This document shows positions 16,013 to 52,146 of a stretch of 64,000 nt of DNA, one piece after another. The notes below the pieces were generated by a model that saw only the letters and a list, made by a program, of their open reading frames with translations, made no database searches and had not been told where the DNA came from. Source of the DNA: Eubacteriales bacterium (lineage in GTDB: Bacteria; Bacillota; Clostridia; Oscillospirales; CAG-382); contig JAZQVQ010000121.1 in NCBI GenBank assembly GCA_045631825.1, positions 1,129 through 65,128 of the forward strand, given 5' to 3'. Position 1 is the first letter of the stretch. The number at the start of each line of letters is the position of its first letter. The position numbers and the translations under genes were made by a program.

Positions 16013-16023
16013 AACACTCTCCT

Positions 16024-16713: not shown

Positions 16714-16717
16714 CTAT

Positions 16718-36066: not shown

Positions 36067-37800
36067 TTACCTCTTAATAACGTGCTTGTTGTATCTCTTA
36101 TCACTACTATACTGTAAAAGATTTGAATTGTAAAGAACTTTTTTATCCAAATCCAAACCACTTAGGGCGACAACGCTTCTTTCGTCTTCTTCCCCACTGT
36201 AAATATAATCAAAAATCTTCCTAGAAACAAACCCATAAGCGAGTGAATGAAAAAAGTGGTCGTTCCCGTTCATCTTCCTCCACATCGGTTGGGCGTTCTC
36301 ACGAACATCATCACGATACATATCCCGTAAATGTTCTATGATTATGTTTTGATAATCACCGTAACCATAAAAATGAAGAGTGTGGTTATTGACTGTCTCT
36401 TTTATAATATCCAAAGCGTTGGTTCTGTTAACTCTATAATAAGTTGTATCCCCGACGGCATCCTTGACCGGTTCGATTTCCTTACCATATTTATATTCTA
36501 TCGGCCAAATTCTACCTTTCGACCAATCACGTATGGCATTTGACAAGGTTGTTTCGGGGTAACGGTCAATCCCTCCGGCCACAATATTATATTTCTCATC
36601 CAGAAGATATAAAGTTTCCATCAACTTATGACCGGGGACAACGCCAAAATAAACAACATCTGACTCATTCGTATTTATCGTAATGTGGCAGTACGCACCA
36701 ACGTCTATACCGATAAAGCACGCTTTACTCTTATCTATTTCCGGGGCGGTTCGATTTTCAAAAGCCTTCATAATATCATCTCGTTCCAAACGGCAGTTGC
36801 TATCTGAATACTCCATACCGAGAACGGTGTTCACCCCACGACGGAGGTTGTCCTTCTTCAAATAATCTGCCATTGTGGTAACCAAATACCGAATCGACAA
36901 CAAGTCGGATGAGAAGGGTCGTACCCAATAACCACGACTATGAAGTCTCTCCGGATAACGGGCGACCCATTCACGTTTGGCTTCGTCCCCGAGAGGGAGT
37001 CTTTTTCGGCATTTTTCACAGCAACAATATGCGTTATCTAAATCCAAAGATACGGCCATACTCAAATCGATGTCCGTCAAAAGGTTGGAAACAGATGAAG
37101 GTAAGTTCGGGATGTACACGTTTTTGAGGTCATACATCGGAATTTGCCAATGATTGCAGTGTGGGCACTGAACCCAATATTCACGTTGGTCCGACGATTC
37201 GTATTCGAGGCTTATACCGTATCCGGAAAAAGTCGGCGTACTGAAACCTTGTTTAATCTTAAAGGAGGAGTGCTGAATACGAGAATTAACCAACGCCAAG
37301 AATTCTTGGTCCGATAAGTCGTATTCGTCGTTAATAATCATATCAACCGGTGTGGATGTAGCGTCGGATTCGACGTTTGCGGACACGTAGAGGAAGGAAC
37401 CCCCAAGTTGCATAATATCATTGTTACGGATTTCGGTTGAATTTTTAACGAGAGGAAAATCTCGGTCGAATATGGGTTTGATACGAGTTTGCGAGTTTCT
37501 TTTCTTCATATTCCCATCTGGGAACGTATACAAAGCACTTGTTCCGGGGTGTTGCGCCAAGAAACCTATCGTCTTACGGATAGAAACCTCAGTCAGGCCG
37601 ACCTGTGATAGTTTCTTAACGCACATATTCGGGTGCATATCATTTATAATGTCTTTCTGGAAGCCGTGTCTTTTGTAGCCGAAAGGTTGTCCGGAAGGGA
37701 AACTCGTATTCTCTGTCACCCACTCGGACATCACAACCTGTCGCTGAGAAGTCTCAATTCTATCTATAAGATTTTTTAAATAAATATTGTCCATTTTCAA
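36067..37800 (-). CDS. terL: terminase large subunit (GpA-like)
   Basis: 577 aa and the first gene of the late operon. It has CPHCNHWQ ... CCEKCRK zinc-ribbon-like pairs as in the GpA family. The likely ATG at 37794 is preceded by AGGTG. Confidence 0.8.
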   Translation of the reverse strand: MKMDNIYLKNLIDRIETSQRQVVMSEWVTENTSFPSGQPFGYKRHGFQKDIINDMHPNMCVKKLSQVGLTEVSIRKTIGFLAQHPGTSALYTFPDGNMKKRNSQTRIKPIFDRDFPLVKNSTEIRNNDIMQLGGSFLYVSANVESDATSTPVDMIINDEYDLSDQEFLALVNSRIQHSSFKIKQGFSTPTFSGYGISLEYESSDQREYWVQCPHCNHWQIPMYDLKNVYIPNLPSSVSNLLTDIDLSMAVSLDLDNAYCCCEKCRKRLPLGDEAKREWVARYPERLHSRGYWVRPFSSDLLSIRYLVTTMADYLKKDNLRRGVNTVLGMEYSDSNCRLERDDIMKAFENRTAPEIDKSKACFIGIDVGAYCHITINTNESDVVYFGVVPGHKLMETLYLLDEKYNIVAGGIDRYPETTLSNAIRDWSKGRIWPIEYKYGKEIEPVKDAVGDTTYYRVNRTNALDIIKETVNNHTLHFYGYGDYQNIIIEHLRDMYRDDVRENAQPMWRKMNGNDHFFHSLAYGFVSRKIFDYIYSGEEDERSVVALSGLDLDKKVLYNSNLLQYSSDKRYNKHVIKR

Positions 37801-42435: not shown

Positions 42436-42449
42436 GAGTCGCAAGACTC
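42436..42449 (+). repeat. hairpin-B family copy (GAGTC-GCAA-GACTC)
   Basis: 5-bp stem with a GNRA loop, downstream of the PAPS-reductase gene. Confidence 0.8.
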
Positions 42450-42496
42450 CGACTTGATAAAAAATCTATTTTTTTTATTTTTTTATAAAATAATGC

Positions 42497-42525
42497 TTGA
42501 CATTAAAACGAAAGTGTGATATAAT
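42497..42525 (+). promoter_or_regulatory. consensus sigma70 promoter P1 with extended -10
   Basis: TTGACA, 17-nt spacer ending in TGA, TATAAT. An A/T-rich UP-like tract lies upstream. Confidence 0.8.
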
Positions 42526-42595
42526 GACTATATCAAGCAAGGGGATGGATTCGCTGTTCTCACTTGATAAAATAAAAATATAAGGATATAAAACA

Positions 42596-43252
42596 ATGAA
42601 AACAAAAAACACAAAAACAACAAAAAACACAAAAAACACAAAAAACACAAAAAAAGAATACACCAACAAAGCTTTAGAAAGCCAGCTAATTTTAATTAGG
42701 AAATCAATCAAAAAAGCAAGGGAAGCTTCGCAAGAATATACAGCTAATTTAATTTACGCTTTTTTACTGGATTCGCAAGAATACAAAAAAACAGAATCCC
42801 GAATCCGTTCCATTTTAGCTGATTCGTTCGGTAATGATTGGCAAGCCGTCAAAGGGTCTGAAAATAGAAAGATTCGCTATGCTAGAATCATTTTTGAATC
42901 AAGAATCGAAGCTTTGAAAAATTGCAAAAATCCAGATGAGGTTTTGCATTATCTGAAAACGAATCAAGAACAGCTGAGTCATTCAAAAGTTTTGAATATC
43001 AATACGAATCAAGCAAGCAAGCAAGCAAGCAAGAAAGCAATCAAGCAAGAAAGCAATCAAGAAAGCAATCAAGAAAGCAAGTCGAATCTTTATGGGAAGA
43101 ATCCGAATCCAGAATCCGAATCAATGGAAGTCATAGCTTTCATCAAGTCAGCTGTGAAAAATCCGAAGCTGTTAGCTTTGATGAATGAAAAGCTAGCCGA
43201 ATCAGGTATCCGAATCCAGTGCATAGCGAATCCGATTCGGAAAGTGGCATAG
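42596..43252 (+). CDS. repeat-rich basic hypothetical protein
   Basis: 218-aa ORF with its own promoter P1 and terminator. It contains KNT repeats (9-nt A-rich units), a period-4 AAGN tract (43011-43082) and a dense GAATC cluster. Confidence 0.55.
   Translation: MKTKNTKTTKNTKNTKNTKKEYTNKALESQLILIRKSIKKAREASQEYTANLIYAFLLDSQEYKKTESRIRSILADSFGNDWQAVKGSENRKIRYARIIFESRIEALKNCKNPDEVLHYLKTNQEQLSHSKVLNINTNQASKQASKKAIKQESNQESNQESKSNLYGKNPNPESESMEVIAFIKSAVKNPKLLALMNEKLAESGIRIQCIANPIRKVA
43011..43082 (+). repeat. period-4 AAGC/AAGA/AATC tract (18 units)
   Basis: AAGCAAGCAAGCAAGCAAGCAAGAAAGCAATC... read directly. It encodes QASKQASKKAIKQESNQESNQESK. Confidence 0.9.
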
Positions 43253-43254
43253 TC

Positions 43255-43304
43255 AAGAGAGAGTCGCAAGACTCTCTTTTTTCTTTTTTTTTTCTTTTTT
43301 TTTT
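43255..43304 (+). terminator. intrinsic terminator built on a hairpin-B core
   Basis: AAGAGAGAGTC-GCAA-GACTCTCTTTT stem (8-11 bp, GNRA loop), then a T-rich tract of about 27 nt. Confidence 0.85.
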
Positions 43305-43357
43305 AACTATGCGTAAGGGTTTTTGAAAAATTTGAATCGCCCGAATCGCAAAAATCG

Positions 43358-43373
43358 GAGTCGCAAGACTCCA
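43358..43373 (+). repeat. hairpin-B family copy (GGAGTC-GCAA-GACTCC)
   Basis: 6-bp stem, 24 nt upstream of the ATG at 43398. Confidence 0.85.
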
Positions 43374-43397
43374 ACAACATTTTGAAAGGAACAAACA

Positions 43398-43553
43398 ATG
43401 ATTAAAGGTGTAATCCAACAATTTTGTAAAACATTAGAACAAGCTGAATCTATCCAATCGGAACTTTACGAGAAATACGATTCTGTGCAGTTAGTATCTT
43501 TCCCAACGACACAGGAGGAAGGAATCTACATTTTTAAAGTAGAAAAAAGGTAA
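43398..43553 (+). CDS. small hypothetical protein (51 aa, below the ORF-track cutoff)
   Basis: ATG is preceded by the canonical hairpin-B, CAACAA and GAAAGGAA leader. The frame is open to TAA at 43551-43553. Confidence 0.45.
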   Translation: MIKGVIQQFCKTLEQAESIQSELYEKYDSVQLVSFPTTQEEGIYIFKVEKR

Positions 43554-43581
43554 TTTTTAGCATTTTTTCTACCTAAAACTC

Positions 43582-43610
43582 TTGACAATACAACAAAAGT
43601 ATGATATAAT
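43582..43610 (+). promoter_or_regulatory. consensus sigma70 promoter P2 with extended -10
   Basis: CTTGACAATACAACAAAAGTATGATATAAT. The upstream TTTTTTCTACCTAAAAC is shared with P4. Confidence 0.85.
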
Positions 43611-43650
43611 CATATCTGTAATCGGGACAACCCGAAACAACTCAACCAAT

Positions 43651-43666
43651 GGAGTCCCGAGACTCC
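43651..43666 (+). repeat. hairpin-B family copy (GGAGTC-CCGA-GACTCC)
   Basis: 28 nt upstream of the ATG at 43695. Confidence 0.9.
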
Positions 43667-43694
43667 AACAACCAACCTGAAAGGAACTAACGCA

Positions 43695-44003
43695 ATGAAA
43701 CACACATTATTTATCGGATTGAATGACAAGGACACGAAACAACAAGAAATTGACACTATCACAGCCTATAAAACGCTGATTCGCCTTATGACAAAGAACG
43801 GCTACACGGGTGGGACGATTTCCCAAGCCGAGGGATTTTATACTCATCAGGACGGCAGTTTTACAACCGAAAAAATGATTCGGGTGGAAATTATCGATGC
43901 CGATGCAGTCAAGACCACTAACCTCATCAACGACATCAAGGTAGCCTTGAATCAGGAATGCGTAGGCTTACAGGAAGAAGTCGTCAAAACGAGTTTTGTG
44001 TAG
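43695..44003 (+). CDS. hypothetical protein
   Basis: 102-aa ORF with a P2 / hairpin-B / GAAAGGAA leader. Confidence 0.65.
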   Translation: MKHTLFIGLNDKDTKQQEIDTITAYKTLIRLMTKNGYTGGTISQAEGFYTHQDGSFTTEKMIRVEIIDADAVKTTNLINDIKVALNQECVGLQEEVVKTSFV

Positions 44004-44040
44004 GTGGAGTTTCCCTTATATTTATCCACCTAGCACGAGC

Positions 44041-44074
44041 AGTTTGGAGTCCCGAGACTCCAAACTGTATTTTT
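44041..44074 (+). terminator. extended hairpin-B copy with T-run (terminator candidate)
   Basis: AGTTTGGAGTC-CCGA-GACTCCAAACT (11-bp stem), then GTATTTTT. Confidence 0.6.
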
Positions 44075-44102
44075 AACCACTAATACGAAAGGAAACTTTA
44101 CA

Positions 44103-44531
44103 ATGGCAACAGCTAATTTTAAACAAATGGACAAATTTGATTTGTGGGTATATGAACCAGATTTTTGTGGGGATTTACCCGAGAATCCAGAGGAATGCGA
44201 CTATGATTTCGCTTACGAGGATTTTACCACCAATTTCGACTCTTTACCAAAGCCCAACACGGACTTTTTTGACATCAGCCTGAAATCTGGGCATTATTCT
44301 GGGGTGCAGATTTATGTGGACTACAAGCCCGACTTATGCGACCCGAAGCATCTTACCAACGAGGACACACGGTATTTTTTGGATTTACCGTTATCGGTGG
44401 CGAAGCGTAGGCACGAAGCCGAAATCAAACGAATCCAAAAGTGGCTTGCCCGACTCGGCAGAATCGGGGCAGTCAAACTGATAGCAGTGGCACGATTTTC
44501 AAATGGGGAGGTATGGTATGAACGAGCCTAA
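44103..44531 (+). CDS. hypothetical protein
   Basis: 142-aa ORF with GAAAGGAAAC upstream. Confidence 0.65.
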   Translation: MATANFKQMDKFDLWVYEPDFCGDLPENPEECDYDFAYEDFTTNFDSLPKPNTDFFDISLKSGHYSGVQIYVDYKPDLCDPKHLTNEDTRYFLDLPLSVAKRRHEAEIKRIQKWLARLGRIGAVKLIAVARFSNGEVWYERA

Positions 44532-44685
44532 ACGCACGAGAACCTATCTAACGGCACACAAAGCCAACGGACGGTGGTATTTTAAAGAACACAAAACCAA
44601 AAAACCTGATTTAGAAACTTTATTAAACAATTATTTGAAAGGAACAAACTATGGCAACACCAAAAACATTAAAACGAATCGATAA
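44518..44685 (+). CDS. small basic hypothetical protein
   Basis: ATG at 44518 is preceded by GGGGAGG. It overlaps both neighbouring ORFs. Confidence 0.35.
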   Translation: MNEPKRTRTYLTAHKANGRWYFKEHKTKKPDLETLLNNYLKGTNYGNTKNIKTNR

Positions 44686-44845
44686 GGAAAAAGCCTTAAA
44701 GATTATGAACAAACATTATTTAAACGGAACAGGATATTACGAATACGGGGATTGTGGCGACTTTATCTACGAGGAACGGGGTCGTTTATATCTCATTCGG
44801 TCAACATTCGGACAAGAGTATGAAACAGGCGAGGTGGCACAATGA
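44651..44845 (+). CDS. hypothetical protein
   Basis: 64-aa ORF with GAAAGGAACAAACT upstream. Confidence 0.55.
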   Translation: MATPKTLKRIDKEKALKIMNKHYLNGTGYYEYGDCGDFIYEERGRLYLIRSTFGQEYETGEVAQ

Positions 44846-45087
44846 AGAAATACAGAGCAACGATAGAACGGAAAGTCGTCAAGACTTTACTTTTGACTTA
44901 CGAGTTCGAGTCCCGAGACTCCGTAGACCGTATCAAAGAGGAGTTGAGAAACGGTTGGGCTGACTCATACGCAACCCCGATTGACGAGGATTATTTTGAA
45001 GAGGAGTACAACGATAGGTTGTTGACGCTTGAATCTTTGGACGAGGATTCTGAACCGTTATTTGACTTTTTGAGTGATGAAAAATAA
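44842..45087 (+). CDS. acidic hypothetical protein (contains an in-frame hairpin-B copy)
   Basis: 81 aa, ATGA overlap, GAGGTGG upstream. GAGTCCCGAGACTCC at 44908-44922 reads E-S-R-D-S. Confidence 0.6.
   Translation: MKKYRATIERKVVKTLLLTYEFESRDSVDRIKEELRNGWADSYATPIDEDYFEEEYNDRLLTLESLDEDSEPLFDFLSDEK
44908..44922 (+). repeat. hairpin-B family copy inside a CDS
   Basis: GAGTC-CCGA-GACTCC, codon-aligned as ESRDS. Confidence 0.8.
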
Positions 45088-45101
45088 TGACAAAATGAAA
45101 A

Positions 45102-45131
45102 CAGTTGGGTGTTAAACCAAGCACCCAACTG
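45102..45131 (+). repeat. 10-bp perfect hairpin CAGTTGGGTG / CACCCAACTG
   Basis: Follows the stop at 45087. It shares the CCAAGCA / CCCAACTGC motif with 45196-45214 and with the P4 leader. Confidence 0.7.
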
Positions 45132-45214
45132 CCCATACCACACTACTGACGATTCGCAACCGAAAACCAAACTGCTCGTTTTTGGGTATTCAAAACCCAA
45201 GCACCCAAGCAGTT

Positions 45215-45229
45215 GGAGTCCCGAGACTC
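45215..45229 (+). repeat. hairpin-B family copy
   Basis: GGAGTC-CCGA-GACTC, 12 nt upstream of the P3 -35 hexamer. Confidence 0.85.
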
Positions 45230-45240
45230 TGAAAAACCTC

Positions 45241-45269
45241 TTGACTTTTCTACCTGAATAAGGTAGAAT
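45241..45269 (+). promoter_or_regulatory. sigma70 promoter P3 with embedded palindromic operator candidate
   Basis: TTGACT, 17-nt spacer, TAGAAT. The palindrome TCTACCT-gaata-AGGTAGA spans the spacer and the -10. Confidence 0.7.
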
Positions 45270-45362
45270 TACTATTGCGACTAGGGAGTCTAGACCCGAA
45301 AAGATAGCAACTCACTATCCTGTCGCAATATGTTTTTGAGTTGTTTTTATAGGAGTATAAAA

Positions 45363-45866
45363 ATGATAAATTGTGATTACGAATTTTCATTTATCTTTGG
45401 AAAAATAGGGACTTGCACTTACTGTGGCGAACCTGCTGATACGATTGAACATTTAATACCTTGGTCTGTGATTACGAGCAGTGATTCGAGTAGAAAGATA
45501 AAGGGTTTCTGCACTTACGCTTGCCGAGAATGTAATTGTTTCGCATCAAATCGGGTTTTTCACACTTTTGAGGAACGAGTAAAATTTGTCCACGAAAAAT
45601 TGAGAAAGAAATACAAGCGATATATGGGGGTTGTTTGGGATAGTGGTGAATTAAACCAAACCACTGGAAATTTGAAAAAATATATACGAGGTTGTAATAC
45701 TTTGAACAAGATTGCTAGGCAACGATTAGCATATCCCACCTCAAATGAATTTTGGGAAATCCTAAATTCGGCTCGTGAGGATGCCTATTTAGACCCCAGA
45801 ATCCCAAAAAATCTTTTGGAATTTCTCGTCCCAACAGATTGGACACCAAGTTGGGTTGAAAAATAA
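45363..45866 (+). CDS. HNH-like endonuclease candidate
   Basis: ATG is preceded by AGGAG. CTYCGEPADTIEHLIPWS ... CRECNCFASN resembles an HNH/zinc-ribbon core. Confidence 0.5.
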   Translation: MINCDYEFSFIFGKIGTCTYCGEPADTIEHLIPWSVITSSDSSRKIKGFCTYACRECNCFASNRVFHTFEERVKFVHEKLRKKYKRYMGVVWDSGELNQTTGNLKKYIRGCNTLNKIARQRLAYPTSNEFWEILNSAREDAYLDPRIPKNLLEFLVPTDWTPSWVEK

Positions 45867-46049
45867 AAAACAAGGAAAGGGGGTTTTTAAGCGTTTCCTA
45901 TCACGGATACCTAAAAACCCCCGTTTGCCTCTGTAAGACCCCTTTACGGCGTTTTTAGAGGCATTTTAACTCGGAAGTATATCCCCAACTTTCGAGTTTT
46001 TTAAATTTTTAACCATTTTGGGGATATTTTTAACACGAAAGGATACACA

Positions 46050-46442
46050 ATGATAAAAATCGTAGAAGAAATCGGAATTAGAGAGTTTAAACCTTGGTCG
46101 GGGGCAGTAGACCCCTTCAATGAAATTGAAGAATGTGGCAAACTGGACCAATTTGAGCAGTTGATTGAACAGTTATACCCAGAGGGAATTTCTCGCACTG
46201 GTATCAATGATTGGCTCTGGCACGAAACAGAAAGCCTCTACGAGGCTCTCGGTATGATACGCTCGGAATCTGAACTCCAAGACATCATCACCGACAATGT
46301 CATAGAACCAAACGCTGATTTAGACCAATTTCTCGACTCAGAGGATTTTAACTGCTATGAACGGGACAAAATCAGAACCAATTTTGAGGATTGGGTGGAC
46401 GATTACCAGTTTTTGCACGATTTGGGAAAATATGCCGACTAA
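46050..46442 (+). CDS. strongly acidic hypothetical protein
   Basis: 130 aa, roughly one quarter Asp/Glu by eye, with GAAAGGATAC upstream. Confidence 0.65.
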   Translation: MIKIVEEIGIREFKPWSGAVDPFNEIEECGKLDQFEQLIEQLYPEGISRTGINDWLWHETESLYEALGMIRSESELQDIITDNVIEPNADLDQFLDSEDFNCYERDKIRTNFEDWVDDYQFLHDLGKYAD

Positions 46443-46532
46443 AGTTTGGTAGTATCGGTGGAGGCAGTCGAGAGGTGGGCGTGGGCAGTTTTTGACCAAA
46501 ATTGCCCAAATTAACAAAAGTTGTAATTTTTA

Positions 46533-46724
46533 CACTTAAGAAGCAGAAGTCATTGATTTTATTGAATCTGGTATGTCACTTTACTTTTTCTAACTCGGTT
46601 TCCCTGAAAAAAAATGGGGTAAAAATATATAAAAAGGGTAAAAAATATATATATAAAAGCGAGTTGAAGAATCTTAAGTGACATATCGGATTCAATGTTT
46701 TCAATGACTTACGCTTCTTAAGTG
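46533..46724 (+). repeat. large inverted repeat (49-nt arms, 94-nt AT-rich spacer)
   Basis: Arms 46533-46581 and 46676-46724 pair at 41 Watson-Crick plus 3 G-T positions out of 49. The core contains GGGTAAAAA(A)TATATA twice. Confidence 0.85.
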
Positions 46725-46750
46725 ACATTTTGAGAACCCCAAAATGGCAT

Positions 46751-46771
46751 TTTTGTCTAATTTTTGTCTAA
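46751..46771 (+). repeat. TTTTGTCTAA doublet (copy B)
   Basis: TTTTGTCTAATTTTTGTCTAA. Compare 42404-42424. Confidence 0.8.
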
Positions 46772-46881
46772 AATTACCCATTTTTCATAAACGAAAGTAG
46801 TAAAGTCAACCAAGTGTATAAGCATACCAAAGTTTTAACATCAAAAAATCACAAAAAACTGATTTTTTCTACCTAAAACAC

Positions 46882-46910
46882 TTGACAATACTACAAAAGT
46901 ATGCTATAAT
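46882..46910 (+). promoter_or_regulatory. consensus sigma70 promoter P4 with extended -10
   Basis: CTTGACAATACTACAAAAGTATGCTATAAT. Confidence 0.85.
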
Positions 46911-46918
46911 AAAGGTAT

Positions 46919-46947
46919 CCAAGCAGGAAAAGGGACTCACTGCTTGG
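46919..46947 (+). repeat. 5'-terminal leader hairpin (hairpin C, copy 1)
   Basis: CCAAGCAG-GAAAAGGGACTCA-CTGCTTGG, starting about 8 nt after the -10 of P4. Confidence 0.75.
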
Positions 46948-46986
46948 GTATTTCAATCCAACTGCTTGGGTGGTTCGGATTACACA

Positions 46987-47034
46987 CCCCACAACCCCAC
47001 AACCCAGCAACCCCACAACCCCACAACCCCACAA
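46987..47034 (+). repeat. octamer tandem repeat (CCCCACAA) x6
   Basis: Five exact units plus one CCCAGCAA variant, in the 5' leader of the 47073 gene. The complement is TTGTGGGG x6. Confidence 0.95.
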
Positions 47035-47036
47035 CA

Positions 47037-47050
47037 GAGTCCCGAGACTC
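47037..47050 (+). repeat. hairpin-B family copy
   Basis: GAGTC-CCGA-GACTC, 22 nt upstream of the ATG at 47073. Confidence 0.85.
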
Positions 47051-47072
47051 CAACAGATGAAAGGAAAAGCAA

Positions 47073-47366
47073 ATGAAAACGGAGTATATTTCGCAAGAGA
47101 ACGCAGACAGATTGTATCGGATATTAAACCGTGCAAGTGGTTGTTATTTCAAGGTTTATGACACAGAGTCGCACGTTATTACGACGAGGTTTCCAGAGAA
47201 GTTGATTATGGCGATTGACGGAGGGGACGAGGAGATTCGGATAGAGATTTACGACCACAGCGAGCGTGTATATCGTGGGACATTGTATTTACTGCCGTAT
47301 GAGGAGGATTCGATGCCTTACGATTGGTCTGACAACGCATTTATGGACAAGTTATTAGATTTTTGA
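47073..47366 (+). CDS. hypothetical protein
   Basis: 97-aa ORF with GAAAGGAAAAGCAA upstream. Confidence 0.65.
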   Translation: MKTEYISQENADRLYRILNRASGCYFKVYDTESHVITTRFPEKLIMAIDGGDEEIRIEIYDHSERVYRGTLYLLPYEEDSMPYDWSDNAFMDKLLDF

Positions 47367-47411
47367 GGGCGTAGAAAACTATCTAAACTAAAATGATTTG
47401 TCAAGTAAAAC

Positions 47412-47435
47412 CCACCTCGCCTATCGGCTCGGTGG
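47412..47435 (+). repeat. hairpin-A family copy (CCACC stem, TATC loop)
   Basis: CCACCTCGCC-TATC-GGCTCGGTGG. Confidence 0.85.
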
Positions 47436-47448
47436 AGGAAGATGACAC

Positions 47449-47464
47449 GGAGTCCCGAGACTCC
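47449..47464 (+). repeat. hairpin-B family copy
   Basis: GGAGTC-CCGA-GACTCC, 34 nt upstream of the ATG at 47499. Confidence 0.9.
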
Positions 47465-47498
47465 ACATTACAACTAAAAATTGAGAAAGGAAAATAAA

Positions 47499-47948
47499 AT
47501 GGAAAAAACTATAACATTTAAAATTGATAAGAATCGCAAAGCAGAGATTGAGATTACCTTGGGTGATGAGGGACGGTTTTCTGTCTGTGGTAGTTTGTAT
47601 GAAAAGAATCGGTCCAAATGGGAGTGTGAGTATTGTGGACAATGTTTGGACTCGCTTTCCGAGTTGATTACTGACCCATTATTTACGCAGATTTATTTCT
47701 TATGGAAACGGTATCATTTGAATGATTTGCACGCAGGGACTCCTGTGCAGGAGTATGCGTTGGAACATTCCCCCATTGGTTCTTTGTTGGAAGCTGATTA
47801 CAAACACCGTTGTGAGTATTTAAAATCCATTGGTTTATATGAGGTCAGTGGGTATAAGTATGGACACGGTTGGTTGACTGAAACTATCGAACCACACGAT
47901 TTGGAATTGATAAAAAGCATCGCAACAGGCGAACGCAACCTCGCCTGA
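47499..47948 (+). CDS. hypothetical protein
   Basis: ATG follows GAAAGGAAAATAAA. Its TGA stop lies in the loop of the next hairpin-A copy. Confidence 0.65.
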   Translation: MEKTITFKIDKNRKAEIEITLGDEGRFSVCGSLYEKNRSKWECEYCGQCLDSLSELITDPLFTQIYFLWKRYHLNDLHAGTPVQEYALEHSPIGSLLEADYKHRCEYLKSIGLYEVSGYKYGHGWLTETIEPHDLELIKSIATGERNLA

Positions 47949-47960
47949 CGGCTCGGTTGC
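47935..47960 (+). repeat. hairpin-A family copy (GCAACC stem, TGAC loop)
   Basis: GCAACCTCGCC-TGAC-GGCTCGGTTGC. Confidence 0.85.
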
Positions 47961-47970
47961 TAAATAAAAC

Positions 47971-47986
47971 GGAGTCCCGAGACTCC
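47971..47986 (+). repeat. hairpin-B family copy
   Basis: GGAGTC-CCGA-GACTCC, 23 nt upstream of the ATG at 48010. Confidence 0.9.
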
Positions 47987-48009
47987 AACAACCAAGAAAG
48001 GAAAATAAA

Positions 48010-48357
48010 ATGATTACAGTGCAAATGGAAGAAAGTGATGTTTTGGATTTATTTATCCAGCGTATAAATTATTGGACAACAGACCCAGTCGTTGCCAATT
48101 TATATACCGATATGTATGAAAGATTGCTCGAAGATGGGTGTTTCAATCACACCCAACTGGATATACAGAGAATCGTAGATAACGATTATGTGAATAACTG
48201 CTCAATCATATATTCAGACGACCCAGATTTCGATAAATACTTTAAGATTTACGAGGAACGGGGTGCGTGCGATATATCTGACGAGGATTTATCTTATTCA
48301 TATATCGAATCGGTAGATAATGACGATGAACCAACAATGATGTTGGTGCGTAGATAA
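48010..48357 (+). CDS. acidic hypothetical protein
   Basis: 115-aa ORF with GAAAGGAAAATAAA upstream. Confidence 0.65.
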   Translation: MITVQMEESDVLDLFIQRINYWTTDPVVANLYTDMYERLLEDGCFNHTQLDIQRIVDNDYVNNCSIIYSDDPDFDKYFKIYEERGACDISDEDLSYSYIESVDNDDEPTMMLVRR

Positions 48358-48401
48358 AAAAAAAAACCCGTCAAGTGCTTTTTTATCCGAAAAGCACTTG
48401 A
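48356..48401. other. A10 tract plus 13-bp perfect hairpin that includes the -35 of P5
   Basis: GTCAAGTGCTTTT (48369-81) pairs with AAAAGCACTTGAC (48389-401). Read on the minus strand, this is a hairpin followed by a T-run. Confidence 0.6.
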
Positions 48402-48425
48402 CAATATAACCAAAGTATGCTATAA
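48397..48425 (+). promoter_or_regulatory. consensus sigma70 promoter P5 with extended -10
   Basis: CTTGACAATATAACCAAAGTATGCTATAAT. Confidence 0.85.
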
Positions 48426-48433
48426 TGTATTTA

Positions 48434-48462
48434 TCAAGGCAGGAAAAGGGACTCACTGCTTT
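48434..48462 (+). repeat. 5'-terminal leader hairpin (hairpin C, copy 2)
   Basis: CAAGGCAG-GAAAAGGGACTCA-CTGCTTTG. The 13-nt loop is identical to copy 1, and the stem carries a paired G/T insertion. Confidence 0.7.
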
Positions 48463-48469
48463 GACCGAA

Positions 48470-48493
48470 CCCACCTCGCCTATCGGCTCGGTG
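48470..48493 (+). repeat. hairpin-A family copy
   Basis: CCACCTCGCC-TATC-GGCTCGGTGG. Confidence 0.85.
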
Positions 48494-48500
48494 GAGAACA

Positions 48501-48514
48501 GAGTCCCGAGACTC
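48501..48514 (+). repeat. hairpin-B family copy
   Basis: GAGTC-CCGA-GACTC, flanked on both sides by hairpin-A copies. Confidence 0.85.
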
Positions 48515-48519
48515 AAACA

Positions 48520-48541
48520 CACCTCGCCTATCGGCTCGGTG
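48520..48541 (+). repeat. hairpin-A family copy (shortened outer stem)
   Basis: CACCTCGCC-TATC-GGCTCGGTG. Confidence 0.8.
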
Positions 48542-48562
48542 GAAGAATGAAAGGAAATTACA

Positions 48563-49054
48563 ATGAGAGAATCAACAAAATATAATAAAATCATCGGTAT
48601 TGCGAATGGTTCGGTTTATGTGTTAGAAGAAACCTTTACATACTCTGGCGAGTTTAAAGGTTGCTGTGGATACACAATGTCCACGATTTCGCAGGATTAT
48701 ATTGACGAACGCAATGATGTCGATTGGTTGTGCGATAATTATGATTATGTATGGCGTGAGGCTGTGCAAGCACAGCAAACAACAATGGGTCTTGAGGATT
48801 TTATGGACGATTGGGTGCGTAATTGTTGTGAGTTGTTTCCGACAGACGACTCCTCGTTTCGTATGGATTTCGAACAAGCGTTGGAAGATGCTCGTCCAGA
48901 GGTTGCCAAAAAAGTTATTGAGTATTTTGGTGCTGACAGCGAGGATTTTGGTGCTTGGAACAACGAGGGTTGTGGGCGTTGTTTTCACAAAGATATGGAA
49001 TGGGACGAATTGTTTGAACCAGAACTTTGGGAAATGATTCGTGCTACCGAATAG
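48563..49054 (+). CDS. acidic, Cys-containing hypothetical protein
   Basis: 163-aa ORF with GAAAGGAAATTACA upstream. Confidence 0.65.
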   Translation: MRESTKYNKIIGIANGSVYVLEETFTYSGEFKGCCGYTMSTISQDYIDERNDVDWLCDNYDYVWREAVQAQQTTMGLEDFMDDWVRNCCELFPTDDSSFRMDFEQALEDARPEVAKKVIEYFGADSEDFGAWNNEGCGRCFHKDMEWDELFEPELWEMIRATE

Positions 49055-49060
49055 ATGAAC

Positions 49061-49086
49061 GCAACCTCGCCTGACGGCTCGGTTGC
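49061..49086 (+). repeat. hairpin-A family copy (GCAACC stem, TGAC loop)
   Basis: The 35-nt block GAACGCAACCTCGCCTGACGGCTCGGTTGCTAAAT is identical to 47931-47965. Confidence 0.85.
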
Positions 49087-49100
49087 TAAATGAAAAACTC

Positions 49101-49123
49101 GGAGTCCCGAGTCTCGGGACTCC
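49101..49123 (+). repeat. expanded hairpin-B variant (23-nt perfect palindrome)
   Basis: GGAGTCCCGAG-T-CTCGGGACTCC, 23 nt upstream of the ATG at 49147. Confidence 0.9.
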
Positions 49124-49146
49124 ATAACACAAGAAAGGAAAATAAA

Positions 49147-49740
49147 ATGAAAACAGTAAATTACACGAATTTGTCAACAGCAATTTTTCAAGGGTTTTAT
49201 GAATCAAACTTGTATAATGCTGATAGCGAATACTATGCTAGAGAATACTTGGGGGAAGATTGCGAACTGCAAGATTTTAAAGGTTTTTGTAATAAGGTAG
49301 CCAAAAAGGCAGGCGATTTGTTGCACGAACAGGTTGTGTGGGACGACTCGCTTATCCAACGGATTGATTTCGTTGAGTTAGATAGTCCAGAGTTTTACAA
49401 TTACCGAACGGACCGATTGGTTTTGTCTGTTGATGTAGACACGGACGGTTTAGAGGAGTATTGCTTTGAAGAACACGCCGAAAAGTTTGCGAAGTATTTG
49501 GAAGATAATTTTACTTCTTATGACGGTTTCCATTCGTTTATTCGCAACACGCTCGGTGGTTTCAAGGAACAGTATGTTGAGGAAGATAAAAAGGGTCGCT
49601 GTTTGGATGTAATGATTGAGTTTTATATCTTACAAAACATCGATTTGGATTCGTATCAACTGGCTTTGGTTGAGTGTGCGAATGAAGAACTTTATAACTA
49701 TATGACAACCACCTCGCCTGACGGCTCGGTGGAGAACTGA
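49147..49740 (+). CDS. acidic hypothetical protein
   Basis: ATG follows GAAAGGAAAATAAA. The C-terminal codons TTSPDGSVEN are encoded by a hairpin-A copy. Confidence 0.65.
   Translation: MKTVNYTNLSTAIFQGFYESNLYNADSEYYAREYLGEDCELQDFKGFCNKVAKKAGDLLHEQVVWDDSLIQRIDFVELDSPEFYNYRTDRLVLSVDVDTDGLEEYCFEEHAEKFAKYLEDNFTSYDGFHSFIRNTLGGFKEQYVEEDKKGRCLDVMIEFYILQNIDLDSYQLALVECANEELYNYMTTTSPDGSVEN
49709..49732 (+). repeat. hairpin-A family copy (CCACC stem, TGAC loop) inside a CDS 3' end
   Basis: CCACCTCGCC-TGAC-GGCTCGGTGG. Confidence 0.85.
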
Positions 49741-49752
49741 AAGGAAAATAAA

Positions 49753-50031
49753 ATGAAAAATATACCGACAATTAGTTATGGTTTAATGGCAGAAGTTGTC
49801 AGAACCATTGAACACTTAAAAACTTTTAACTTTACCGATTTATCCGAAGTATCAGAACGACTTGATGTTTATGATTTTGGTGAGTATTATTGTGATTTCA
49901 CATTTTCATTGGGTGATTCGGAAATCGTGATTGAGGGAAGTTATTATATCGGGGATAAGGGTAACATAACTCTTTCCGATTGCTTTTCCGTATTTAATTC
50001 AGAAGCAGAACTTTTGTTGGAGGTAGATTAA
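49753..50031 (+). CDS. hypothetical protein
   Basis: 92-aa ORF with GAAAGGAAAATAAA upstream. Confidence 0.6.
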   Translation: MKNIPTISYGLMAEVVRTIEHLKTFNFTDLSEVSERLDVYDFGEYYCDFTFSLGDSEIVIEGSYYIGDKGNITLSDCFSVFNSEAELLLEVD

Positions 50032-50325
50032 ATGAAAATACTAATTGACACAAATTACAACACAGAACTTATGGCAGAAATTGGCTGTGAAATACAGGAA
50101 GTTAAACGTTTTATCGAAAATAAAACCTTTGAGGAATGTTATGATAATTTCCCGTGGGAAATAACCTGTGTTGTCACAGACGACTCTTTGTTCGATTTCT
50201 ATACGGATAGTTTGTCTGGAACAATCGAAAAGGGTGTAGACGGTAAAGCACAAACATCTGGTGTTTGGAGTTATTACCGAAACGGCGAATGTATTTTTGA
50301 TTTTGAGGAGAGTCACGATGATTAA
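50032..50325 (+). CDS. hypothetical protein
   Basis: 97-aa ORF that abuts the previous stop. Confidence 0.6.
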   Translation: MKILIDTNYNTELMAEIGCEIQEVKRFIENKTFEECYDNFPWEITCVVTDDSLFDFYTDSLSGTIEKGVDGKAQTSGVWSYYRNGECIFDFEESHDD

Positions 50326-50572
50326 ATGTGATGAAGATGGAAACGAAGTCAACACTGGCTCGTATTGGAAGTTTATTGAGGCTTATTATCCTAATTACGA
50401 TTCTTCCGATGAAATATGCGATAGCAACGATTTCAGCTTGTGGTTAGAGTGCGAACGAGCCAACCCACCGATGGGCTTGGAAAATTGTATTAAAAATGAA
50501 GTAGTGATTTTTGAAAAAGCACTGCGAAACTATATTAAATTAAGAAAGGAAAATAACAATGAAAACTTATGA
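50318..50572 (+). CDS. hypothetical protein
   Basis: ATG at 50318 has GAGGAG upstream. The ORF overlaps the previous stop. Confidence 0.55.
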   Translation: MIKCDEDGNEVNTGSYWKFIEAYYPNYDSSDEICDSNDFSLWLECERANPPMGLENCIKNEVVIFEKALRNYIKLRKENNNENL

Positions 50573-50798
50573 AATTACTTATTGGGAAAAAGAAAGTGTT
50601 TGGGTTGAAAGACGCACACTGGTAAAAACGAAACACGATTTGAATAAAGCCATTGAAGATGGGGACGAAGAAATCCTGAAAGAAGCCATCGAAGACAACG
50701 CTCTTGATTATATTCAAGCTGATTATAATTGGGAAACGGCAGAACACGAAGATTATGACTTCGAAGAAGTTATGGTCGAGGAGATTCAAAATGATTAA
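50559..50798 (+). CDS. acidic hypothetical protein
   Basis: 79-aa ORF with GAAAGGAAAATAAC upstream. Confidence 0.55.
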   Translation: MKTYEITYWEKESVWVERRTLVKTKHDLNKAIEDGDEEILKEAIEDNALDYIQADYNWETAEHEDYDFEEVMVEEIQND

Positions 50799-51024
50799 AA
50801 TATACGACTTACCGAAAAGCAATAACAAAGCAAAGGTTGTTATCGATGATGAGGGTGTTTATACTCTCGTGAGTTATAACACACCCATTATCGAACAATA
50901 TCCAGACGGCACATTAAAACGCCTTTACGATGGGTGGACTGCCACCACAGGGCGACACATCAAAGCGTTCTGTGAACTGGATAAAAAGAAGTTTATGGCA
51001 TTACCATTAAATGAAAGGATTTAA
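50791..51024 (+). CDS. hypothetical protein
   Basis: ATG at 50791 has GAGGAG upstream. The ORF overlaps the previous stop. Confidence 0.55.
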   Translation: MIKIYDLPKSNNKAKVVIDDEGVYTLVSYNTPIIEQYPDGTLKRLYDGWTATTGRHIKAFCELDKKKFMALPLNERI

Positions 51025-51026
51025 AA

Positions 51027-51227
51027 ATGGAAGATATAGAAGATTTGAAATATCGAATTGAAGAACTTGAACAACAAAACTCGTTTGAATGTCAATGCGT
51101 ATCAGAACGGGACGAAAAGTTGGCTAAAATCCGACGGCGTATCCTATTGGACGTTTATCCGAAAGCGATAAACAACCCCGACATTCAACACCAACTTATT
51201 GAACTTTTAAAATTGATTGAGGAATGA
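51027..51227 (+). CDS. hypothetical coiled-coil protein
   Basis: 66-aa ORF with AAAGGA upstream. Confidence 0.55.
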   Translation: MEDIEDLKYRIEELEQQNSFECQCVSERDEKLAKIRRRILLDVYPKAINNPDIQHQLIELLKLIEE

Positions 51228-51230
51228 AAA

Positions 51231-51554
51231 ATGACAACGGTTAACATTGATTTACAAGAAGTGGCAATCAGTGCTTTCAAAGAGATTTTAGAGGAATACT
51301 CTTTGGATTGTTTGGTTTATGATATTGCTATCGCAAACCCACAGTGGTGGTCAGATACATTCAAACCTGTAATTGATGAATCAATTAAACAGGCTTTTAT
51401 GAAAAAAGGTGAAAAGATTTTGAAGGAAGTAATGGAATCGGTTATTTCTGAATCTGATTTAGATTATCTAATTGAACGAAAAGTTGAAGAAATCGTCACC
51501 CCTATTGTTAAAGAACAAATTATGAAAGGATTTAAAAATGCAAAAGGAATTTGA
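51231..51554 (+). CDS. hypothetical protein
   Basis: 107-aa ORF, tightly packed against its neighbours. Confidence 0.55.
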   Translation: MTTVNIDLQEVAISAFKEILEEYSLDCLVYDIAIANPQWWSDTFKPVIDESIKQAFMKKGEKILKEVMESVISESDLDYLIERKVEEIVTPIVKEQIMKGFKNAKGI

Positions 51555-52146
51555 ATTATACAGAAAAATGAACAACCTTACTAAAAGAGATTTTTCGAAT
51601 ATGTTGGGTGTTTCACAGAACACTTATAATTATTGGCTTTCTGGTGATAAAAAACCCAGAACTCGATTTACAGCAAACTTACAGGCGTTTTATGAAGCCA
51701 ACATCAAAGGTAAAGTAGAGTCCCGAGACTCCACAGAACCAACTTTGAAAGGGCGTAAAAAAGAAAAACGCACCCTTTATGATATGATGGACCTGTTGTC
51801 GGAATTAAAAGATGGGAATACGGTTTATTTAACCAATACACCTTATTCTTTGAAAATTGTAGACGGGTTTATCGTTCGATATAACGGTGATGACATTATA
51901 TCAATCGGCTCTCCGGTGTTGTCGTCTGACGAATATCACGTCTATAAACCGATTCCTTTGAATATCCAAATAGGAAAACGCTATCTGACGGCTAAGGGTG
52001 AAAAGGTTACGATTTACACCAAAGACGATGATGACACATTCAAAGGTATATTTGACAACACAGGGAATACGAATTTTTATAATTCAAACGGACTCGTTTG
52101 TTCCATTGGTGGTAGTTACGAAGATAATTTAATTGAGGAGATTTAA
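51538..52146 (+). CDS. Xre-type HTH domain protein (contains an in-frame hairpin-B copy)
   Basis: N-terminal LTKRDFSNMLGVSQNTYNYWLSG. GAGTCCCGAGACTCC at 51718-51732 reads ESRDS. Confidence 0.6.
   Translation: MQKEFELYRKMNNLTKRDFSNMLGVSQNTYNYWLSGDKKPRTRFTANLQAFYEANIKGKVESRDSTEPTLKGRKKEKRTLYDMMDLLSELKDGNTVYLTNTPYSLKIVDGFIVRYNGDDIISIGSPVLSSDEYHVYKPIPLNIQIGKRYLTAKGEKVTIYTKDDDDTFKGIFDNTGNTNFYNSNGLVCSIGGSYEDNLIEEI
51718..51732 (+). repeat. hairpin-B family copy inside a CDS
   Basis: GAGTC-CCGA-GACTCC, codon-aligned as ESRDS, in the same frame as the 44908 copy. Confidence 0.8.

Follow-up and report, generated by a model that had tools for sequence, protein, structure and literature searches.

In E. 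coli, REP hairpins stabilise the mRNA upstream of them, and the REP and REPIN families number tens to hundreds of dispersed copies, commonly arranged as inverted pairs. The early mRNAs of phages T7 and SP82 are cleaved at intercistronic hairpins, RNase III substrates with about two helical turns (about 20 bp or more) of duplex, and hairpins at the 5' end of a message protect it from RNase J1 and RNase E. Mycobacteriophages carry short repeats of other kinds: in cluster A, the repressor of temperate phages recognises asymmetric DNA sites, the stoperators, and among the SAS/ESAS motifs of cluster K the SAS contains the ribosome binding site (RBS) itself. Integron attC sites have R''/R' boxes (RYYYAAC...GTTRRRY) and are 57 nt or more in length, and the ends of IS200-IS605 elements are subterminal hairpins associated with a transposase and precise excision. 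In T4-type phages, a PeSL consists of a sigma-70 promoter and a stem-loop terminator (PMC2839356, PMC4122927).

The 64-kb stretch of DNA analysed here (the window) contains six copies of an element of 22-26 nt, hairpin C, at the boundaries of small early genes. A search of the whole window with the pattern ACCTCGCCTRWCGGCTCGGT, allowing up to 3 mismatches, found 6 sites with 0 mismatches, all on the + strand (matches starting at 47414, 47938, 48473, 48521, 49064 and 49711). The same search found 0 sites in 100 shuffled sequences; the chance expectation is none. A covariance model trained on 19 phage copies recovered the identical six at 47-51 bits, its runner-up on either strand of the window scoring 13 bits, so that the census of the first-pass annotation agrees exactly with both searches. 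All six are direct repeats within 2.3 kb and form no inverted pairs. Their 5' flank is RAAC, and a GTAG-type head is absent. Hairpin C is real and is conserved in related phages; its function we infer. The copies lie among the following features.

47412..47435, + strand: hairpin C copy 1, CCACC-TC-GCC-TATC-GGC-TC-GGTGG; intergenic, 45 nt downstream of the stop of gene 47073..47366
47449..47464, + strand: hairpin B, partner of copy 1, GGAGTC-CCGA-GACTCC; a 5'-UTR hairpin
47499..47948, + strand: ORFan gene, 149 aa, between copies 1 and 2; no family found
47935..47960, + strand: hairpin C copy 2, GCAACC...TGAC...GGTTGC
47971..47986, + strand: hairpin B, partner of copy 2
48368..48426, + strand: terminator-promoter cassette; its stem-loop (48368-48404) overlaps the -35 of a perfect TTGACA-17-TATAAT promoter
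48434..48464, + strand: leader hairpin, CAAGGCAG...CTGCTTTG, 5'-terminal in the transcript of the 48398 promoter
48471..48494, + strand: hairpin C copy 3, in the 5' leader, 3' of the promoter (48398-48426) and of the leader hairpin
48500..48515, + strand: hairpin B variant, AGAGTC-CCGA-GACTCA, between copies 3 and 4
48520..48541, + strand: hairpin C copy 4, outer stem of 4 bp (CACC/GGTG); abuts the RBS of 48563..49054 from upstream
48563..49054, + strand: ORFan gene, 163 aa, between copies 4 and 5; no family found
49061..49086, + strand: hairpin C copy 5, GCAACC type, 6 nt past the stop of 48563..49054
49101..49123, + strand: extended hairpin B, partner of copy 5, GGAGTCCCGAG-TC-TCGGGACTCC
49147..49740, + strand: gene, 197 aa, weak phrog_37559 match; its last 10 codons are copy 6
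49709..49732, + strand: hairpin C copy 6, within the coding end of 49147..49740 and followed directly by the RBS of 49753..50031

Folded singly, each copy gives an outer stem of 4-6 bp, then a TC/TC internal loop (2x2) and an inner GCC/GGC stem of 3 bp that is capped by a tetraloop. Free energies lie between -10.3 and -14.4 kcal/mol, and relative to dinucleotide-shuffled sequences the z-scores run from -2.2 to -4.2. When whole intergenic regions were folded, hairpin C was the minimum-free-energy structure in 4 of 5; in the fifth, two neighbouring copies pair with one another. The anatomy originally described is borne out. The outer stem is CCACC/GGTGG (CACC/GGTG at 48520) or GCAACC/GGTTGC and the tetraloop is TATC or TGAC, combined variously with the stem types; the compensatory C-G/A-U stem difference with mixed loops had been correctly described. 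The complementary strand folds 2.4-3.3 kcal/mol better than the + strand. The element occurs in the three coding contexts that the annotation had distinguished: four of the six copies are intergenic, copy 2 supplies from its loop the TGA (47946-47948) that is the stop codon of gene 47499..47948, and copy 6 is translated as ...TTSPDGSVEN, the C-terminal end of the product of 49147..49740. Its described position upstream of hairpin B or the RBS also stands, with hairpin B 6-14 nt downstream of four copies and the RBS directly downstream of the other two.

Five perfect sigma-70 promoters (at 42497, 43582, 46882, 48398 and 52172) all lie on the hairpin C strand, and none was found on the opposite strand. 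The terminator-promoter cassette feeds copies 3 and 4 and is kept in relatives L241, L243, L259, L260 and L267; the leader hairpin is repeated at 46917-46945. Pfam and PHROG scans of the proteins adjoining the copies gave no confident family (two have weak PHROG matches only) and no RNA-binding, nuclease or transposase domain. Downstream of the copies are genes for small HTH and GerE-type proteins. The window contains no tRNA gene that was found, and an Rfam scan of it at gathering scores returned no match, which makes a fragment of tRNA, rRNA or another known RNA unlikely.

Seven related metagenomic phage contigs, one of them labelled pig gut, contain 20 further copies, in the orthologous 2-3 kb of an early ORFan region. 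Of the copies that could be placed relative to genes, the majority overlap the upstream stop codon or sit within about 15 nt of it, and the others are either part of a 5' leader or 45-49 nt past a stop; each of them is upstream of hairpin B or an RBS. No hairpin C copy was found in more distant relatives. These carry a hairpin family of their own, CGAGTG-N5-CACTCG, roughly 9-31 nt upstream of the RBS in the cases listed, which makes UTR hairpins a trait of the group. A megablast of 46000-51000 against cultured phages and a tblastn of the 197-aa protein found no match, and IMG/VR scans with the hairpin C core, hairpin B and the 197-aa protein gave chance matches only, in GC-rich contigs. The nearest matches to the terminase and primase (39-45% aa) come from siphoviruses of Proteobacteria, roughly 80 kb in size, so that a Firmicutes host, suggested by the RBS and the extended -10 promoters, cannot be assumed.

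Comparison of 22 distinct copies shows stems and TC/TC loop to be almost invariant. Thirteen of 20 core columns do not vary, including the 5' TC of the internal loop, and one copy is changed at each position of the 3' TC. The two middle bases of the tetraloop have at least 4 states and differ even among orthologous copies. Pairing is retained in 87.9% of cells, and none of 500 shuffles scores as high in pairing or in covariation. Of the 22 copies, 11 have C-G at position 6:27, 7 have A-U and 4 are unpaired there; position 4:29 is G-C, A-U or U-A. Where an otherwise intact copy is changed on one side of a pair only, in four cases, the result is always G.U or U.G on the + strand and would be an A-C mismatch on the opposite strand. 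Between copy 5 and its intergenic orthologue L260_2756 there are three substitutions, and pairing is retained in all three.

The first-pass annotation had read the compensatory stem difference as selection on base pairing, which was overstated. The difference itself is real: one C-G/A-U pair separates two sub-families, each with its own flanks. It is, however, essentially one event, later copied. One additional compensatory pair exists. The covariation among related phages is likewise thin and comprises very few independent events. The unpaired copies at 6:27 also weaken the claim, as does the loss of pairs or of an entire arm in copies within coding sequence. The internal loop is conserved as strongly as the stems, which points to sequence-specific recognition or gene conversion beyond pairing alone, and gene conversion among repeats could imitate conservation. 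Individual copies are dispensable: the one after the 165-aa gene is missing in L265 and the one after the 145-aa gene in L241, and a copy in each of L241 and L261 lacks its 3' arm. Chimeric, half and decayed copies occur in the relatives, mostly within coding sequence.

The same core is found in bacterial chromosomes. Gut Lachnospiraceae carry an exact 18-nt core, with matches of up to 24/24 nt when the loop is counted, in tandem arrays between genes (copy 6 is 24/24 identical to units of these arrays), and the core is also present in repeat families of Acidobacteria and Sphaerobacteraceae. The phage lineage and the Lachnospiraceae carriers are both gut-derived. The Lachnospiraceae repeats share with hairpin C the form ACC-xx-GCC-NNNN-GGC-xx-GGT with the middle two loop bases free; unlike it, they form tandem units of 47-63 nt and pairs spaced about 90-125 nt, have a second mini-hairpin of GCGAAGC type and often lie directly past an intrinsic terminator. 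They are intercistronic, within operons, and opposite to the phage element in transcriptional orientation: in all of the at least 12 unambiguous bacterial cases, the transcribed strand and the phage mRNA strand are reverse complements. The bacterial sense strand, which has a GNNA loop and G.A pairs in tandem, folds better than its complement. Permissive Rfam searches of the bacterial elements (E<=10 or E<=1) returned nothing relevant, and a literature search found no named equivalent of hairpin C. In blastn the window and the bacterial loci have the hairpin alone in common, which provides neither a prophage nor a spacer clue.

From alignment of the relatives, hairpin C marks where related phages swap genes, as the earlier proposal of a recombination module had anticipated. 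Homology blocks end at 47957, 47922 and 49696-49760, the first being the point within copy 2 where homology with L259 stops. The cassette at 49058-49153 matches L241 8812-8915, and the combination of hairpins C and B lies between different genes in both L241 and L260. Two copies, L259_7534 and L267_3621, are chimeras of both arm types, and half copies are found at L241 7814, L241 10564 and L261 1138. Filled and empty sites differ by slippage-type deletions without precise excision, and no target duplication, inverted pairs or, among the proteins next to the copies, transposase domain was found. Since the cassette is directly repeated between unrelated ORFan genes, it would also act as a recombination linker for gene gain, loss and swap. 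Such an effect is supported by the comparison and would be secondary to a role in RNA.

We tentatively read hairpin C as a cis-acting element of immediate-early polycistronic mRNAs, located at or just past the 3' end of a cistron, the likeliest of the readings considered, though its chance of being right falls somewhat short of even. The intercistronic cassette would run from hairpin C through a linker rich in A/U to hairpin B in the 5' UTR and end in a strong RBS. The single-stranded linker may be cut by an RNase E- or RNase Y-type endonuclease; hairpin C would then cap the upstream cistron and block 3' exonucleases, and hairpin B would head the downstream cistron and shield its 5' end. A putative factor could recognise the surface made up of the GCC/GGC clamp and the internal loop with its invariant UC/UC. 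Known precedents are the REP hairpins, the T7 and SP82 early mRNAs and the protective 5' hairpins. A role in mRNA stability or processing fits the sequence data, being consistent with the copies at gene 3' ends and the AU-rich linker to hairpin B, and also with the four wobbles that pair on the + strand only and the three paired changes in the orthologous intergenic copy. Several observations count against this role. Hairpin C is limited to 2.3 kb of an early region (42-64 kb) with many other junctions that lack it, unlike a general stabiliser, which would be expected more widely. In three of its contexts it overlaps translated sequence and would be melted by passing ribosomes, and some copies are in a 5' leader, away from a gene 3' end. 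Individual copies are dispensable. The complementary strand folds better and is the one transcribed in bacteria, which suggests an element shaped for that other strand. The independent covariation events are few, and gene conversion could have mimicked the conservation.

Hairpin C may instead be a palindromic DNA repeat akin to REP, lacking any dedicated function in the phage. It would have been captured from or shared with bacteria, then spread and homogenised within the phage lineage through gene conversion, unequal recombination and slippage during replication, and tolerated at gene boundaries only; this is possible but doubtful. The bacterial repeat families fit it, as do the confinement of copies to one 2-3 kb segment in one sub-lineage, the frequent gains, losses, half copies, chimeras and whole-hairpin deletions, the joint conservation of internal loop and stems expected of a young or homogenised repeat, and an mRNA strand that is the poorer-folding one. 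However, the wobble-type changes favour transcribed-strand pairing in four of four cases, the orthologous intergenic copy keeps all three of its changed pairs, and loop bases evolve far faster than the core between orthologues, fitting constraint; target duplications, inverted pairs and, among the neighbouring proteins, a transposase are lacking, and the deletions resemble slippage rather than excision. Conservation of the entire 20-nt core, unpaired dinucleotides included, would also be expected of a double-stranded DNA operator, a 24-bp near-palindrome (CCACC-N14-GGTGG) at which a dimeric phage or host protein would act as a roadblock or switch of early transcription, much as at the stoperators of cluster A mycobacteriophages. 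We consider this improbable. Several same-orientation copies at gene boundaries and the HTH and GerE-type proteins encoded downstream would suit it, and a DNA site may have either transcriptional orientation, as seen between phage and bacteria. Yet the TC...TC interrupts the palindrome identically in all copies, something that a symmetric dimer would have no need of, and half-site recognition does not predict compensatory and wobble changes. The free loop bases at the dyad are uninformative, since a spacer would be free too, and the binding protein is hypothetical.

The strand relationship could mean that phages and bacteria share an unnamed cross-phylum family of 20-nt structured repeats, which the phage carries in antisense on immediate-early transcripts, so as to pair with host mRNAs that contain the sense repeat and destroy or silence them, or to titrate the host factor binding it; we regard this as highly improbable. 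We give scarcely any credence to its narrower form, an antisense device in which the six copies, as exact complements of a host intercistronic repeat, form 20-24 bp duplexes with host mRNAs and so provide RNase III substrates for host shut-off. The consistent complementarity, the full identity of copy 6 with the Lachnospiraceae arrays, the common gut origin and the location in an immediate-early region with consensus promoters speak for it, but the terminase and primase are closest to those of phages of Proteobacteria, pairing between two stable hairpins would be kinetically hindered, and the variable loop bases do not conserve kissing complementarity. An intrinsic terminator or attenuator dividing early transcription units is largely refuted by the sequence and hardly probable. 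Hairpin C is a GC-rich hairpin at gene ends, and hairpin B at 43255-43280 and 44039-44068 is extended into stem-plus-T-run terminators; but every + strand copy lacks a following U tract and has an A-rich tail, a terminator scan reports none of the copies, and several of them lie between a promoter and the gene that it serves.

Should hairpin C be an RNA element of early mRNAs, the 3' hairpin, linker, 5' hairpin and RBS would form a compact modular cassette in which to study the partitioning of these messages in uncultured gut phages. It would also show how such cassettes drive gene shuffling beyond the T4 group. Host assignment could benefit from the identity with the bacterial intercistronic repeats. 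This identity points towards a widespread hairpin element that is so far undescribed, and the conservation of its tandem-mismatch core implies a specific, putative partner.

Several known systems can be set apart. With the RNase III sites of T7 and SP82, hairpin C shares conserved intercistronic internal-loop hairpins on early polycistronic transcripts made by host RNA polymerase, and, in the reading proposed here, a 3' hairpin left on the upstream message. It differs in having only 7-9 bp (4-6 outer and 3 inner) and a 2x2 loop, a duplex too short for a canonical RNase III site. Like SAS/ESAS motifs and stoperators, it is a lineage-specific short repeat at many gene starts or ends in a single orientation relative to transcription; the sequences are unrelated. 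It is not an attC site, as AAC/GTT occurs in the GCAACC sub-family only and the element is 22-26 nt long. The defining features of IS200/IS605 ends and of REP-RAYT systems were not found in the copies or the proteins next to them, and the deletions are of the slippage type rather than precise excisions. Origin iterons were rejected because the copies are one gene apart and unclustered, and an intrinsic terminator because the U tract is absent.

Hairpin C resembles PeSL and REP elements and is a member of neither. The REP/BIME/REPIN elements of Proteobacteria are likewise imperfect extragenic palindromes (20-40 nt) able to stabilise upstream mRNA, conserved family-wide including mismatched positions (2x2 in hairpin C), with related copies in bacterial chromosomes. 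In contrast, hairpin C has six copies only, all direct and in one 2.3-kb segment, and neither a GTAG-type head nor a RAYT transposase among the proteins next to them. PeSL, like hairpin C, are short conserved cassettes that recur among small, non-essential ORFan genes where the early region is plastic, and the breakpoints of indels and replacements between close relatives fall within them (PMC2839356, PMC4122927). The sequences are unrelated; hairpin C, at 22-26 nt, contains no promoter, the perfect promoters of the window being separate, and it has A-rich tails in place of a terminator U tract. The truer analogue of PeSL in the window is the separate terminator-promoter cassette at 48368-48426.

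Hairpin C is genuine, non-random and conserved. Its 20-nt core (ACCTCGCCTRWCGGCTCGGT) has six exact occurrences in the window, in hairpins starting at 47412, 47935, 48471, 48520, 49061 and 49709 (copies 1 to 6), all on the + strand, and none in 100 shuffles. With a covariance model built from the phage copies, these six score 47-51 bits, and everything else on either strand 13 bits or less. Each copy folds as the first-pass annotation had described, with an outer stem, a TC/TC internal loop, an inner stem and a 4-nt loop, at -10.3 to -14.4 kcal/mol and with z-scores of -2.2 to -4.2 against shuffled controls; the hairpin is kept in the minimum-energy folds of whole intergenic regions, one of five being an exception. 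The overlaps with coding sequence also hold: the loop of copy 2 supplies the TGA stop codon of 47499..47948, and copy 6 is translated as the final residues of 49147..49740. The element had been said usually to precede hairpin B, a 5'-UTR hairpin, and the ribosome binding site (RBS). Hairpin B (GGAGTC-CCGA-GACTCC) does lie 6-14 nt downstream of four copies, and the other two lead directly into the RBS.

The window, about 40% G+C, is a phage genome organized as follows.

Main features of the phage genome
7-38 kb, - strand, structural genes
36067-37800, - strand, gpA-type large terminase, among the structural genes
38 kb onward, + strand, replication and early genes
39024-41474, + strand, PrimPol-D5 primase

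Small genes follow one another from about 42.4 kb, most of them without a confident PHROG or Pfam family match, and each small early gene has a strong GAAAGGAA RBS. Their promoters are five perfect TTGACA-17/18-TATAAT sequences (42497, 43582, 46882, 48398 and 52172; all 12/12 against the consensus), all on the + strand; a scan of the window found no perfect promoter on the - strand. The first early gene (42596-43252) contains many coding micro-repeats: it opens with (AAAAACAC)n and carries (CAAGCAAG / AAGCAATCAAG)n at 42998-43075. A small ORF at 45330-45866 has weak HNH endonuclease matches (phrog_36777, 4.5e-13; Pfam HNH under the cut-off), is flanked on both sides by long structured non-coding DNA and is absent from the corresponding position of the related loci L241 and L259. 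A large imperfect inverted repeat (46533-46724; 69-nt arms, 78% complementary) lies within a 430-nt non-coding stretch and encloses two AT-rich 20-nt direct repeats (46611-46650). Similar sequence occupies the equivalent place in L241, L259 and L267, and the repeat may serve as an origin or as some other site at the DNA level. Ahead of 47073, the leader (46939-47041) contains short tandem repeats, including ACTGCTTGGGT-type 22-nt repeats and, at 46986-47041, five units of ACCCCACA; L259 has ACTGCTTGGG repeats in differing number without the octamer run, and L267 also has several ACTGCTTGGG repeats. In a distant relative, Acinetobacter phage EAb13 (primase 31% and terminase 37.5% identity), a 2.2-kb direct terminal repeat (15032-17208) starts 0.36 kb past the primase gene, so the region from about 42.4 kb may likewise be a genome-end early region that is injected first.

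No close relative was found among cultured phages or in IMG/VR; the nearest terminase and primase sequences (39-45% amino acid identity) belong to ~80-kb siphoviruses of Achromobacter, Caulobacter, Xylophilus, Pseudoalteromonas and Acinetobacter. Relatives were reached through a 197-aa protein, whose 92 metagenome homologues led to contigs with eight related loci, among them L241, a 73-kb contig (ERZ27316867 k141_925400), and L267, from a 68-kb contig (ERR1135298 k127_29454) whose record name is labelled pig gut metagenome. The related loci hold 20 more copies of C, on the + strand only, in the orthologous 2-3 kb. No C was found in the relatives at 48-57% protein identity (L245, L262, L263, L264), and L262 and L263 carry a hairpin family of their own, CGAGTG-N5-CACTCG, about 9-31 nt upstream of each RBS in the cases listed. 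UTR hairpins thus characterise the group as a whole, and C is specific to one sub-lineage.

Hairpin B occurs at 13 window sites within 42436-51731 (42436, 43261, 43358, 43652, 44047, 44908, 45216, 47037, 47450, 47972, 48501, 49102/49109 and 51718), the copy at 44908 within an ORF. Every B is an inverted pair of GANTC sites (GAGTC-N4-GACTC) whose loop is CCGA or GCAA, and the copies at 43255-43280 and 44039-44068 are lengthened into stem-plus-T-run terminators. Its place is taken by GACTCAC-A-GTGAGTC in L241 and by the CGAGTG family in L262 and L263. Two promoters have, a few bases past the -10, a conserved leader hairpin (CAAG(G)CAGGAAAAGGGACTCACTGCTTG; 46917-46945 and 48434-48464). All close relatives share this hairpin, probably a structure at the 5' end of primary transcripts. 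At 48368-48426 a perfect extended -10 promoter has its -35 overlapped by a stem-loop (GTCAAGTGCTTTT...AAAAGCACTTGAC); this composite is kept in L241, L243, L259, L260 and L267, and the order of C relative to this terminator-promoter cassette is not constant among phages.

Across 22 distinct copies of C, 13 of 20 core columns are invariant, among them the TC on the 5' side of the internal loop; in the 3' TC, each position has changed once. The two central bases of the tetraloop (AT, GA, AA or AG) are unlike even in orthologous copies. Pairing is 87.9% overall and none of 500 shuffles matches this value or the covariation score, although kinship among sequences alone can yield such scores without any structure. 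At pair 6:27, 11 copies have C-G, seven have A-U and four are unpaired; at 4:29, G-C, A-U and U-A are seen and 13 copies are unpaired. The first-pass annotation had taken the C-G/A-U exchange as a mark of selection on pairing, but that argument is weaker than it was put: the exchange divides two sub-families with their own flanks (AAAC-CCACC...GGTGG-AGRA and GAAC-GCAACC...GGTTGC-TAAAT) and is essentially one event, afterwards propagated. Intergenic copies tend to retain pairing, as in L260_2756, whose three substitutions relative to its orthologue, window copy 5, all keep it, but coding copies and recombinants do not: the L260 coding-sequence copy has three pairs broken, and L259_7534 and L267_3621 join a GCAACC 5' arm to a GGTGG-type 3' arm with one mismatch. 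A pair is also broken in L241_7766. In L241 and L261 an in-frame 12-nt deletion has removed the 3' arm of the coding copy (TSPD|NTK versus TSPDGSVEN), L241 has a half copy at 7814, and in L265 the whole hairpin is missing after the 165-aa gene. L265 keeps CGCAACAAGC at 631-660 where the hairpin is missing, and in L267 type-2 copies are preceded by a partial duplication of their own 5' flank (GAACGCAAC-NAGC-AWCGCAACC; 3465-3500 and 5258-5285), a pattern that looks like whole-hairpin loss via slippage.

Unexpectedly, bacterial operons contain the identical core too, oppositely oriented, and this is the aspect worth pursuing. A metagenome scan with the 18 fixed core bases gave more than 120 matches. 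Among the matches listed, those on GC-rich contigs mostly seem to be chance ones in coding DNA, the listed repeat families excepted, and most on contigs of 35-48% G+C are intergenic, many in repeated families with differing flanks. A stricter scan of species genomes pointed to Coprococcus ammoniilyticus and to an uncultured Lachnospiraceae; two MAGs, one of Sphaerobacteraceae and one from horse faeces, hold repeat families as well. Many bacterial elements form true tandem repeats with units of 47-63 nt, 2-5 in number, and that number differs between samples; at other loci, pairs of copies lie ~90-125 nt apart.

Gut Lachnospiraceae repeat contigs (including Coprococcus ammoniilyticus)
L187, 1-420
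L239, 2600-3100
L133, 6600-6900
L237, 600-1000
L156, 9170-9290
L167, 3310-3460
L253, 3240-3320

These repeats are intercistronic, and each unit includes the 18-nt core of the phage hairpin in opposite transcriptional orientation, units differing in the loop dinucleotide only. One array of 52-nt units lies between two genes, the downstream of which we take, from its N-terminal sequence, to encode V-type ATPase subunit D. Another element stands in a gene leader downstream of a T-box (Rfam match); from the translations, the gene is presumably pheS, and leuB and trpE presumably follow other elements. The bacterial elements themselves have no Rfam match. On the bacterial sense strand a TATAG and a GCGAAGC-type mini-hairpin usually lie ahead, often with an intrinsic terminator. 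Window copy 6 is identical to units of the Lachnospiraceae arrays over 24/24 nt, and blastn found no sequence common to the window and the bacterial contigs beyond the hairpin. The same core recurs, by common descent or perhaps by convergence, in further multi-copy families with their own conserved flanks, sometimes nested in a longer stem.

Further families with the 18-nt core
L196, L157, L178, L183, L211, L225: Ga0070734, high-GC contigs that we take to be Acidobacteria
L247/L249: Sphaerobacteraceae MAG
L246/L254: horse-faeces MAG
L172, L210, L227, L228: other contigs

The best-supported reading, tentative and put at somewhat below even chances, is that early mRNAs carry C as an RNA hairpin at the boundaries of their cistrons. 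Strand, position, fold, conservation footprint and strand-specific wobble changes are established, as is the part played in recombination junctions; four single-sided changes give U.G or G.U pairs on the + strand and mismatches on the - strand. The main rival, somewhat less likely, is that C resembles REP repeats, has no dedicated function and is kept by recombination and gene conversion. A DNA operator is improbable, and a terminator and an antisense device are both very doubtful. In the bacterial elements the transcribed strand (ACC-GA-GCC-GNNA-GGC-GA-GGT) is complementary to phage mRNA in every case, 12 or more, in which neighbouring genes give the direction, the sites at the presumed pheS, leuB and trpE among them; this strand also folds 2.4-3.3 kcal/mol better. 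The phage-bacterial identity could reflect host-repeat capture, a shared binding factor or an antisense relationship.

In blastn of the window at 42-53 kb against relatives, homology forms single-gene modules that end at the cassettes: the L259 block stops at 47957, within copy 2, and a different gene comes next; the L241 block stops at 47922; and blocks stop at 49696-49760, about copy 6 and its RBS. The C-B cassette at 49058-49153 corresponds to L241 8812-8915, flanked there by different genes, and window copy 2 with its B matches an L260 cassette orthologous to copy 5. C is a recombination junction, which supports the earlier suggestion of a recombination module. The role in mRNA processing or stability proposed at the same time is plausible. 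By analogy with REP stabilisers, T7 and SP82 processing sites and 5'-hairpin protection, the RNA hairpin would be accompanied by cleavage in the A/U-rich C-B linker, which would leave C to act as a barrier at the 3' end and B to protect the 5' end, and a specific factor might recognise the invariant UC/UC loop.

In kind, C is akin to known intergenic repeat cassettes of phages and bacteria. The PeSL cassettes of T4-type phages show the same behaviour at recombination junctions (PMC2839356, PMC4122927); C differs in lacking the promoter and the terminator that define a PeSL, and it is the terminator-promoter composite at 48368-48426 that is likened to the T4 PeSL.
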